From the sequence record PZ445554.1: a stretch of DNA of 64,000 bases. One strand, written 5' to 3'. Positions 3,905 to 61,566 of the stretch are shown one piece after another. The stretch's first letter is position 1. Each line of letters opens with the position of its first letter. This stretch comes from a phage. The notes under the pieces are model-generated. The model searched no databases. It was not told where the DNA came from and saw nothing but the letters and a program-made list of their open reading frames with translations. Position numbers and translations under genes: made by a program.

Positions 3905-4180
3905 TTAAATCGCTTTGAATTCTGCTGTCTGCGATTTAAAACGAATGTCGCCTTGGATAACTAGCTCAGCATCAAGACCGAATACAACAATGATATGCGC
4001 GGAACCTGGATACAGTGTAATGGCAATAGAATCCACCTGGTCTGGAAGCAAAGTGTTCAATACATGAGTCACTTGAGCATGGATTCGAAGCTCAGCTGCG
4101 TTATCAAGTTTTTCAAACATATTATTAGCGATAATTTGGCTAAACACTACTTCTACGATTTTAGAGTAAGTCGGAAACAT
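3905..4180 (-). CDS. hypothetical protein, 91 aa
   Basis: ORF track, ATG start. Confidence 0.45.
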   Translation of the reverse strand: MFPTYSKIVEVVFSQIIANNMFEKLDNAAELRIHAQVTHVLNTLLPDQVDSIAITLYPGSAHIIVVFGLDAELVIQGDIRFKSQTAEFKAI

Positions 4181-58753: not shown

Positions 58754-59909
58754 TTAACTGTTCGAGGTCAGTTTCTAAATCAGCAGCTGATTTACTTTTA
58801 CTTTCTGGAGATTTAAATTTTTCAACCTTTGAGTTAATCAATTCATCAACTTCAGCTTCAACAATTTCATTACTATCAATAGCACCTAACTGATAAGCAC
58901 GTTTAATAGCATCTCGGAATGGTTGATGCTTAAATAAAGGACCCCAGAATGTAGTGCAATTGGTATCTTTTGCACGCCAAGATTTTTCTTCGCGAATCAT
59001 CTCGCCGGTTTCTTCATCAAGAAATTCACGAGCATACCAGCCATTTTTAGGTTTTACCACGAATCCTAATTCTAGAGCCATATCTAACAATCCAGAATAA
59101 GGATCGATACCACCGTCAAATTTAACATCAATAAAGAATTTACTTTTTTCTTTAACGGTACGAGATTTTTCTACATTTAGAACAAATTGATACCCCTGAA
59201 GATCGGAACCATCTTTAATCTGGCGCTTACCGATAATGAATACAGTATCAGCCGAATACATTACGCCTGTACCACCTGTCATCACGGTTTTACTAAACAT
59301 TTCAATTGTTTCAATTGTATGGTTAACCGCAACACATGGAATATTTTTAATGCTAAAATAAGGAGTAACAATACGGAATAATGACTTCAGTGATTTAGCA
59401 CGAGTCATATCTGCCACAGATTTTTCATTCAAGGCATCTTCAGTTTCTTTCTTGGAAGCCATATTACCAATTGAGTCGATGAATACAATAACTTTTTCAC
59501 CGCGCTCAATAGCTTCAAGCTGGTTCACCATATCAATTTTCAGCTGTTCAACTGACTGGATTGGCGTATGAATTACTCGTTCCGGGTCAACTCCCATGGA
59601 TCGCAAATAAGCTGGAGTAATACCAAATTCGCTATCATAGAATAGACAAACCGCGTCAGAATATTTGTTCAAATACGCTGCAACCATAGTCAAAGACATA
59701 TTTGATTTAAAGTGTTTAGAAGGACCTGCGAAAATAGTTAAACCAGACTGCATACCGCCATCAATCGCACCAGAAATAGCGATATTAAGCATTGGGATTT
59801 TTGTACGGATTACATCCTTTTCATTAAAGAATTTAGATGTAGTCAGTTCAGCAGTCATTTTAGAAGTGGAAGCTTTAATCAAACGGGATTTTAAATCTGC
59901 AATAGACAT
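58728..59909 (-). CDS. uvsX: RecA-like recombinase UvsX
   Basis: 393 aa; RecA fold, Walker A GPSKHFKS. Confidence 0.9.
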   Translation of the reverse strand: MSIADLKSRLIKASTSKMTAELTTSKFFNEKDVIRTKIPMLNIAISGAIDGGMQSGLTIFAGPSKHFKSNMSLTMVAAYLNKYSDAVCLFYDSEFGITPAYLRSMGVDPERVIHTPIQSVEQLKIDMVNQLEAIERGEKVIVFIDSIGNMASKKETEDALNEKSVADMTRAKSLKSLFRIVTPYFSIKNIPCVAVNHTIETIEMFSKTVMTGGTGVMYSADTVFIIGKRQIKDGSDLQGYQFVLNVEKSRTVKEKSKFFIDVKFDGGIDPYSGLLDMALELGFVVKPKNGWYAREFLDEETGEMIREEKSWRAKDTNCTTFWGPLFKHQPFRDAIKRAYQLGAIDSNEIVEAEVDELINSKVEKFKSPESKSKSAADLETDLEQLSDMEEFNE

Positions 59910-59959
59910 TCATTTTTTCCATAGGCATCATTATATTTTCCTCACTGGTTAAAGATAGA

Positions 59960-59990
59960 GTAATTATAACACAATAAATTTAGGCATTAA
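59960..59990 (-). promoter_or_regulatory. possible middle promoter for uvsX
   Basis: MotA-like box AATGCCTAA, about 12-bp spacer, TATAAT. Confidence 0.3.
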
Positions 59991-60829
59991 TCAACTGCTA
60001 TTGGATGAATAGCATTAAACTTATGAAATGCTTCTGATTTTTCTTTACGCGAAACACACATGCGAAGAACCTTTAGTGGTTCATCTTCTTCACCCAACGA
60101 TTTTCGTTTTTCAATATTAGAAGTTTTCCAACGAGCTTGCTCTGGAAACTCTCTATTGATTTGCTCAAGCGCTCTATTATGTTTAGAATTACTACGAATT
60201 GAACTGCACCCGCCAGGAGCTTGTGCTTTTCCAGATACAACCAGATATTTGAACAAGGCCAAATGCGGATAACCTTGATTAATTAAATTGAGAAATGCAT
60301 ACATATCTTCGCATAAATCAATTTTTCCATACCCAATTTGTTCTGTGGTAAGTTTTCCGAGGTCATACCATGTATTCGTGAATCCGTATGAATTTTCACG
60401 ATAATTACCCCAAGATGAAGTAATTTTAAAAATAGGTAGACGAGCATGGCCATGATAATACCCGCAATCCATGGCATCTTCAACGTATTGAATCAATTCA
60501 TAGAACTGTTCACGAGTCAATTGATTGACTTTATCTGCGCAGCGCCGATCATCTCTCTTTCGCATTGAACTCATACGAATAGTAGTATCATCGTCAATCA
60601 TCCAGATTCGTTGACCTGCATACATATCAGTAATTGCTTTACGAGTTCCAGCAATTCCGTTGACATCATCAGGAATAGTTATAATTTTAGCTCTAGACCC
60701 ATAGGCATCATAATAAGCTTTTTCTTCGTGTTCACGCACTACAATATGCGGTTCATAATCAGTCGGAAACATATCAAGGGCAGAAACTGCCCCTACACGT
60801 TGATAGCTTGGAATTACGAATTGAATCAT
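59987..60829 (-). CDS. GT-A fold glycosyltransferase at the bgt locus (candidate hmC-DNA beta-glucosyl-alpha-glucosyltransferase)
   Basis: 280 aa from ATG at 60827-60829; N-terminal VIPSYQR and DxD-type motif WMIDDD typical of family-2 glycosyltransferases; adjacent to gene 42. Confidence 0.55.
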   Translation of the reverse strand: MIQFVIPSYQRVGAVSALDMFPTDYEPHIVVREHEEKAYYDAYGSRAKIITIPDDVNGIAGTRKAITDMYAGQRIWMIDDDTTIRMSSMRKRDDRRCADKVNQLTREQFYELIQYVEDAMDCGYYHGHARLPIFKITSSWGNYRENSYGFTNTWYDLGKLTTEQIGYGKIDLCEDMYAFLNLINQGYPHLALFKYLVVSGKAQAPGGCSSIRSNSKHNRALEQINREFPEQARWKTSNIEKRKSLGEEDEPLKVLRMCVSRKEKSEAFHKFNAIHPIAVD

Positions 60830-61566
60830 TTCCACTCACCATTATAATCTTTTTTCACAATATGAGTTTCGCCAGTATTCCACCAATGATCAACCAAGTA
60901 AAAATGACGAGAATATACATGAAGACTTCCAACATTCCATATAATAGAACCTGCTTTATACTGACGAGTTGAATCGCCTGCATTCAAATCAGATACTAAT
61001 TTATCTAATACGTATTTTTGCCATGCATAATCATTACGGAATCCGAAGACCACATCATTTGAGCGCATGCTTACTACTGCATTGACTTTCTTATCACGAA
61101 TCAGGTACTGTACTGTATTAGTACACATGAAATCTGACATACCATCTTTATTGTAGTCAAATTGCATGGATGGACGAGTATAAATCATGATACCACGTCG
61201 AGAATCAGGATTTTGACCAAGTTCAGCTAAACACATATCATACTGAGCATAGTTATCTTCTGACCAGATAGCCCAACCATAATTCGAGTTAATTTCGCCT
61301 TTAGAAGATGCTACCTGCTGCCAAATCTTTGGTGTTTCACCTGGAATATCTTTAACAAACAAGCTCTTAGATTTATACCATTCAAGTTCACGCTGAATGT
61401 ATTCATCATTAAGAGCGCCAAAAATAAACGGTTCATCTGCTACAAATGATGCGCCAATAATTTCAATAGTTTTAACGCCAGTTTTATCAACTACGAAATC
61501 TTTTTCTTTTAATGCAAGCCCCAAATGAAGACGGATTTCTTCAACTGTCATAGAGTCACTAATCAT
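60826..61566 (-). CDS. 42: dCMP hydroxymethylase gp42
   Basis: 246 aa; sequence recognised as T4 gp42 (MISDSMTVEEIRLHLG...). Confidence 0.9.
   Translation of the reverse strand: MISDSMTVEEIRLHLGLALKEKDFVVDKTGVKTIEIIGASFVADEPFIFGALNDEYIQRELEWYKSKSLFVKDIPGETPKIWQQVASSKGEINSNYGWAIWSEDNYAQYDMCLAELGQNPDSRRGIMIYTRPSMQFDYNKDGMSDFMCTNTVQYLIRDKKVNAVVSMRSNDVVFGFRNDYAWQKYVLDKLVSDLNAGDSTRQYKAGSIIWNVGSLHVYSRHFYLVDHWWNTGETHIVKKDYNGEWK

Follow-up and report, generated by a model that had tools for sequence, protein, structure and literature searches.

Gene organization of the locus

The window, i.e. the whole stretch of phage DNA that was analyzed (PZ445554.1, 64,000 nucleotides), is a segment of a Tequatrovirus (T4-like) genome. 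Megablast searches with three large pieces of it matched hundreds of Tequatrovirus genomes at 95–97% identity. The last 7 kb carry the gene order 43–imm.1–imm–42–ba-gt–uvsX–40–41 on the minus strand. Gene 43 is partial, a 130-aa ORF occupies the position of imm.1, and a 49-aa ORF is located between imm and gene 42. Gene 42 (61566→60826, minus strand) is intact and encodes a dCMP hydroxymethylase of 246 aa. Its product is near-identical to the solved T4 dCMP hydroxymethylase (1B49/1B5D; residues 1–245, E 1.7e-165) and matches the Pfam family Thymidylat_synt. The adjacent gene ba-gt (60829→59987, minus strand) encodes a β-glucosyl-HMC-α-glucosyltransferase of 280 aa plus stop, with the start codon ATG at 60829 and the stop codon at 59989–59987. 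The ORF lister had set the start two codons earlier, at GTG 60835, yielding 282 aa. An earlier note on this DNA had described a 280-aa protein with the motifs VIPSYQR and WMIDDD beside a dCMP hydroxymethylase; the ORF, both motifs and gene 42 were all recovered. The note had placed the transferase upstream of gene 42. Since the minus strand encodes both, ba-gt lies downstream, on the 3′ side of gene 42.

The gene 42/ba-gt junction, GGTGAGTGGAAATGATTCAA, contains an ATGA overlap (60826..60829, minus strand), in which the stop codon TGA of gene 42 (60828–60826) shares bases with the start codon ATG of ba-gt (60829–60827). It is the reverse of the overlap described before, namely of a ba-gt stop with a gene 42 start. 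The same ATGA overlap is present in T2 and in Shigella phage SfPhi01. A Shine-Dalgarno-like element, GGTGAG, is located ~7 nt 5′ of the ba-gt start. The overlap suggests that both genes are co-transcribed, gene 42 first, and ba-gt is possibly translationally coupled to gene 42. Co-expression, as proposed in the earlier note, remains a sensible reading of the sequence, with gene 42 in the leading position. A terminator was considered between the two genes. The sole terminator-like match (60795–60775) falls within the coding region of ba-gt, probably by chance.

The unit of gene 42 and ba-gt ends 3′ in the spacer that separates the ba-gt stop from the start of uvsX (59910..59986, minus strand). 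A terminator scan revealed no intrinsic terminator in 59910..59986. Just 3′ of the ba-gt stop, the element TAATGCCTAAATTTATTGTGTTATAAT (59950–59985, minus strand) comprises TGCCTAA, 11 nt and TATAAT. It resembles a T4 middle promoter, a MotA box plus a -10 element, and putatively drives uvsX. The putative uvsX middle promoter was absent from the output of a simple sigma-70 scan.

The 49-aa ORF between imm and gene 42 (61723→61574, minus strand) encodes a strongly hydrophobic peptide, MKSKIIAVLLLILMVIISIYYSVTVPLMIPTIILGWGLLLLQVKYECIN. Its ATG overlaps the imm stop. The ORF is intact in T4, T2 and T6, with conservative substitutions. It carries no annotation in the examined T4, T2 and T6 records and is listed only as 'hypothetical' in SfPhi01.

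Comparison with the T4 locus

Homology to T4 (NC_000866, blastn) stops at 59898 and resumes at 60844. The replacement cassette (59898..60843) comprises 946 bp, ba-gt plus the uvsX leader, and stands for 1941 bp in T4, segA plus b-gt. The left junction is located at the 5′ end of uvsX, the right one inside gene 42, among its final ~6 codons. As a consequence of the right junction's position in the frame, gp42 ends in NGEWK in the window and T2 and in VGKYA in T4. According to the T4 annotation, the slot between 42 and uvsX harbors β-gt together with the homing endonuclease gene segA.

The earlier note was correct in stating that T4 carries a β-glucosyltransferase of a different fold at this locus: T4 β-gt lies between 42 and uvsX and is a GT-B enzyme, the window protein a GT-A one. 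Both genes occupy the slot 3′ of gene 42, and both enzymes use UDP-glucose, form a β-glycosidic bond and act on hmC DNA. They are unrelated in sequence and fold (T4 β-gt: GT-B, PDB 1JG7, PF09198). T4 β-gt acts on bare hmC, whereas ba-gt acts on α-glucosyl-hmC. The literature describes T4 β-gt as GT-B and unrelated (PMC13216743). A T4-type β-glucosyltransferase was rejected for the window: at the DNA level nothing in it is homologous to the b-gt segment of T4, PF09198 does not match, and the fold is GT-A instead of GT-B. An RB69-like arabinosyltransferase was dismissed as well, gene 42 being of the hydroxymethylase type and near-identical to T4 gp42.

The description of the module as differing from T4 is true and unremarkable. 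The T4 pair of α-GT and β-GT is rare: of 753 phage genomes with glucosyltransferases, only 6 have it, and the usual state is an α-GT or a β-GT together with a TAGT (PMC13216743). The ba-gt arrangement of the window is the common one among T4-like coliphages.

Identity and distribution of ba-gt

The ba-gt ORF was found by megablast in 475 phage records at 90–99% nucleotide identity. Many of these records are annotated as 'beta-glucosyl-HMC-alpha-glucosyl-transferase' or 'beta-alpha-glucosyltransferase'. A tblastn search with the protein yielded 690 records, including copies with 64–66% identity in T4-like phages of Klebsiella, Enterobacter and Salmonella. In every record examined, including T2, T6 and SfPhi01, the gene sits between gene 42 and uvsX. 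PHROG 842, 'beta-glucosyl-HMC-alpha-glucosyltransferase', matches residues 2–277 (E 9.7e-89). The comparison with the T2/T6 glucosyltransferases, recommended in the earlier note as a check, thus gave 99% identity besides the PHROG match at 1e-88.

The protein of SfPhi01 shows no amino-acid differences to the window protein (100% identity). Solly (CAJ1578263) and the BASEL phage Bas42 AndreasVesalius (QXV76006) differ in A98V only. T2 (MH751506) carries R11H, A98V and P251S, corresponding to 99% identity over 280 aa. Two T6 records share Y40N, D55G, A98V and R106H. In addition, MH550421, read over the full 280-codon frame, has a stop (TAG) in place of Q10, and AP018814 (99% identity) has lost one codon of the DDD motif. 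Codon differences in ba-gt are distributed between synonymous and non-synonymous changes as 23:0 against SfPhi01, 19:1 against Solly and 22:3 against T2. This overwhelming proportion of synonymous changes identifies ba-gt as a clearly functional gene under strong purifying selection.

The T2 and T6 genes agree with the window in the length of 280 aa, the slot between 42 and uvsX, the ATGA overlap with gene 42 and the invariant residues, except for T2 Arg11 and the T6 lesions. The window retains the Arg11 that is lost in T2 and is free of the lesions of the two T6 records. In Solly and Bas42, the organization of the TAGT locus is identical to that of the window, and no functionally notable difference was observed. 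Both are different mosaic Tequatroviruses; over the rest of the window, the best matches reach ~95–97% nucleotide identity.

Taken together, the ORF behind gene 42 is very probably the T2/T6-type β-glucosyl-HMC-α-glucosyltransferase (ba-gt, ggt, TAGT), which yields gentiobiosyl-hmC. The T2/T6 enzyme is classified as EC 2.4.1.28. The earlier note had pointed to a T2/T6-type enzyme for gentiobiosyl-hmC, and the orthology at 99% bears this out. Its designation as an alpha-glucosyltransferase does not hold, because the enzyme adds a β-1,6-linked glucose onto α-glucosyl-hmC.

Protein family, motifs and fold

VIPSYQR corresponds to residues 5–11 and WMIDDD to residues 76–81. In Pfam, ba-gt belongs to PF20691 (TAGT, TET-associated glycosyltransferase): its score of 40 bits exceeds the gathering threshold of 27.5, and the match spans profile positions 2–205 of 205. 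This profile also matches 39 of 40 aligned homologues. It is the sole match at E ≤ 1; the Glycos_transf_2 profile (PF00535), proposed for the HMM check in the earlier note, gave none at that threshold. Among the 40 homologues, Glycos_transf_2 matches are marginal and confined to three proteins (best E 0.02). No NCBIfam family model matches ba-gt, and when the protein by itself was searched against PDB sequences, nothing rose above noise (E ≥ 0.46). An exhaustive HMMER search retrieved relatives in 342 clusters at 50% identity, which indicates a TAGT-related family of moderate size. Across the alignment of 40 sequences, eleven residues do not vary: I6, R11, R63, D79, D80, D81, D175, G186, G206, G207 and R212. 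All of them are present in the window protein.

An AlphaFold2 model based on the 40-member alignment was confident, with a pLDDT of 92.2 and a pTM of 0.90. It folds into one Rossmann-like α/β/α domain similar to those of solved GT-A enzymes. D79-D80-D81, the DXD motif, directly follows strand 74–78, and D175 in a 'CED' motif opens helix 174–184. The structural neighbors are GT2 enzymes of polysaccharide and teichoic-acid synthesis. In a Foldseek search against viral models, the ba-gt of Klebsiella phage PKO111 was retrieved first (TM 0.95), and further TAGT proteins ranked behind it. A family profile searched against PDB sequences gave one weak match, the GT2-type β-1,3-glucosyltransferase 9JMA (E 2.6e-4), covering the N-terminal half. 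IPSYxR aligned with IPTYNR and MiDDD with LDDDD, and the eD motif of the ba-gt family was weakly aligned to the ED of 9JMA and TarS. The inverting GT-A enzymes of GT2, AvpGT (9JMA), TarS (5TZE), TarP (6H1J) and SpsA (1H7L), share the GT-A fold with ba-gt, together with the N-terminal IP(S/T)Y-x-R nucleotide-binding strand, a DXD where β4 ends and an acidic motif of the ED type where a helix begins.

On the predicted model, ba-gt is a GT-A-fold, DXD-type glycosyltransferase. Since Glycos_transf_2 does not match, GT2 membership in the sense of Pfam or a CAZy-style classification was rejected, while the GT-A fold and TAGT membership were kept. The family-2 label of the earlier note is therefore correct with respect to fold and GT2-like motifs and incorrect with respect to the family, which is TAGT (PF20691). 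A 2026 paper likewise assigned T6 TAGT to GT-A on an AlphaFold3 model and placed it in a group that is sister to GT2 (PMC13216743).

Proposed function and mechanism

The pathway would begin with gp42, which forms 5-hm-dCMP; the phage polymerase would then introduce hmC into the DNA. A phage α-glucosyltransferase, encoded beyond the window, would attach an α-linked glucose to hmC in duplex DNA. The metal-dependent DXD enzyme ba-gt would finally transfer a second glucose from UDP-glucose in β-1,6 linkage, yielding gentiobiosyl-hmC. UDP-glucose would be held by the N-terminal IPSYQR strand and a DDD-bound metal, with D175 in the 'CED' motif acting as the base of an inverting transfer. Inversion is the most likely mechanism and fits the formation of a β linkage from an α-linked donor. 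D175 is the probable catalytic base, and D79–81 probably act as DXD. PDB sequence and profile searches found neither a solved structure nor residue-level biochemistry of this enzyme, so that both roles are inferred from the analogy with GT2.

A tblastn search with the T2 α-gt found no α-gt in the 64-kb window, whose right end falls within gene 43, short of the site of α-gt. In T2, T6 and SfPhi01, α-gt is located between genes 47 and 55, ~12–13 kb beyond ba-gt. This position corresponds to a site past the right end of the window. Judged from these three phages, an α-gt is presumably present in this phage as well.

Gentiobiosyl (β-1,6-glucosyl-α-glucosyl) hmC, the product of ba-gt, accounts for ~5% in T2 and 72% in T6. 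Deletion of ba-gt in T6 turns the DNA into a substrate of the α-glucosyl-hmC glycosylase Brig1 and renders the phage more sensitive to Brig1 (PMC11078745). DNA of T6 Δg-gt releases glucose upon treatment with the deglucosylase BapA, while wild-type T6 DNA does not (PMC13160076). The Durham Tequatroviruses with α-GT plus TAGT and without β-GT contain 5hmdC, α-glc-mdC and α-gentiobiosyl-mdC and no β-glc, as determined by HPLC/MS. They fall into two classes. Solly and its group contain ~1/3 5hmdC and ~2/3 α-gentiobiosyl-mdC, with only background α-glucosyl; EL, BGP and Geo show a 1:2:2 mixture (PMC13390438). The core interpretation of the earlier note was right, and the T6 Δba-gt/Δg-gt mutants and the LC-MS of Solly support the diglucosylation that it predicted and the effect of this modification on defense systems (PMC11078745, PMC13160076, PMC13390438).

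Predicted DNA chemistry and alternative readings

The virion DNA of this phage is predicted to carry diglucosylated hmC in a T6/Solly-like rather than T2-like pattern, which is the best prediction because its transferase is only one conservative residue apart from the Solly protein. The predicted mixture consists mostly of gentiobiosyl-hmC, with about a quarter to a third of unglucosylated hmC and little α-glucosyl-hmC. Identity, fold, motifs and synteny of ba-gt come directly from this analysis, whereas the enzyme function in T6 and the DNA chemistry of near-identical phages are taken from the literature. Carriers of the gene differ in how far their DNA is diglucosylated, as do T2 and T6 or the Durham classes; hence the predicted proportions are inferred from the orthologues.

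The same variation, including the 1:2:2 mixture of EL, BGP and Geo, leaves some room for a ba-gt that is present and works poorly, as in T2, resulting in mostly mono-α-glucosylated DNA with a few percent of gentiobiosyl-hmC. The T2 gene is 99% identical, yet its DNA contains only ~5% gentiobiosyl-hmC. The window protein, however, has the family-invariant Arg11, His11 being confined to the T2 lineage, and every other invariant residue is intact. Moreover, it is separated by A98V only from the protein of Solly, whose DNA is ~2/3 gentiobiosyl with background α-glucosyl. Weak activity is accordingly considered unlikely.

A specificity unlike that of T2/T6, with another sugar donor or with primary transfer directly onto hmC, has a much lower probability. 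The TAGT family is diverse: TAGTs pair with either an α-GT or a β-GT, and 288 of 753 phage genomes harbor a TAGT without α-GT or β-GT (PMC13216743). Primary transfer has been proposed for such 'solitary' TAGT homologues in phages without α-GT and β-GT. However, the identity of 99–100% to the T2, T6 and Solly proteins with known products makes a change of specificity very unlikely, and locus and flanks are those of α-GT-carrying Tequatroviruses. An ordinary GT2 enzyme for a cell-envelope or capsid glycan, to which the GT-A fold with DXD and the polysaccharide and teichoic-acid structural neighbors might point, is hardly conceivable given the missing Glycos_transf_2 match, the membership in the DNA-modifying TAGT family, the overlap with gene 42 and the absence of transmembrane or lipid-carrier features, and it is effectively refuted by the altered DNA chemistry upon deletion of the T6 orthologue.

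Formation of gentiobiosyl-hmC by a T2/T6-type ba-gt thus remains the preferred reading. The gene decides between gentiobiosyl-hmC and α-glucosyl-hmC in T-even phage DNA. This choice changes the sensitivity of the phage to glycosylase and deglucosylase defenses, Brig1 and BapA (PMC11078745, PMC13160076). Enzymes of the GmrSD family still cut gentiobiosyl-hmC DNA (PMC11078745, PMC13160076, PMC13216743, PMC13390438). Ba-gt is already known, a textbook gene that is annotated and covered by recent papers on fold, distribution and phenotype. As enzyme, fold class, distribution and phenotype have been published, no new question arises from the window; it only permits routine annotation of the gene and a forecast of the DNA chemistry.

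Allelic differences in the T2 and T6 records

Codon 11 of ba-gt is located at 60797–60799 in the window and at 4096–4098 in the examined segment of T2 MH751506. His11 (CAT) is present in all seven T2 records and in SV76, while Arg11 is invariant in the 40-member TAGT alignment. Arg11 is encoded in the window, T6, Solly, EL, Bas42, ECO78, RB33, GiZh and G29. In the four nearest non-T2 records, CGT is the sole difference from T2 within an 81-nt stretch around codon 11. Pattern scans of IMG/VR detected the His11 allele in 0 contigs and the Arg11 allele in 3, numbers too small to be informative.

Natural ba-gt alleles may set the diglucosylated fraction of T-even DNA, with His11 of T2 explaining the 5% in contrast to 72% in T6; this is a tentative idea and more doubtful than probable. 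If it applies, Arg11 in the window predicts heavy diglucosylation of the T6/Solly type. A statement on His11 as cause of the low gentiobiosyl content of T2 was not met in the papers that were read.

The ba-gt lesions of the two T6 records are different and independent. In MH550421, the TAG at codon 10 is located at about 3951–3953 of the examined segment, and the CDS is annotated from Met20. In AP018814/NC_054907, one GAT is missing from GATGATGAT (about 1146 of the segment), which shortens the invariant DDD79–81 to DD. The lesions could be stock mutations or sequencing errors. They might mean that loss of ba-gt is tolerated or selected in laboratory passage. For the classical high-gentiobiosyl phage, such lesions are odd.
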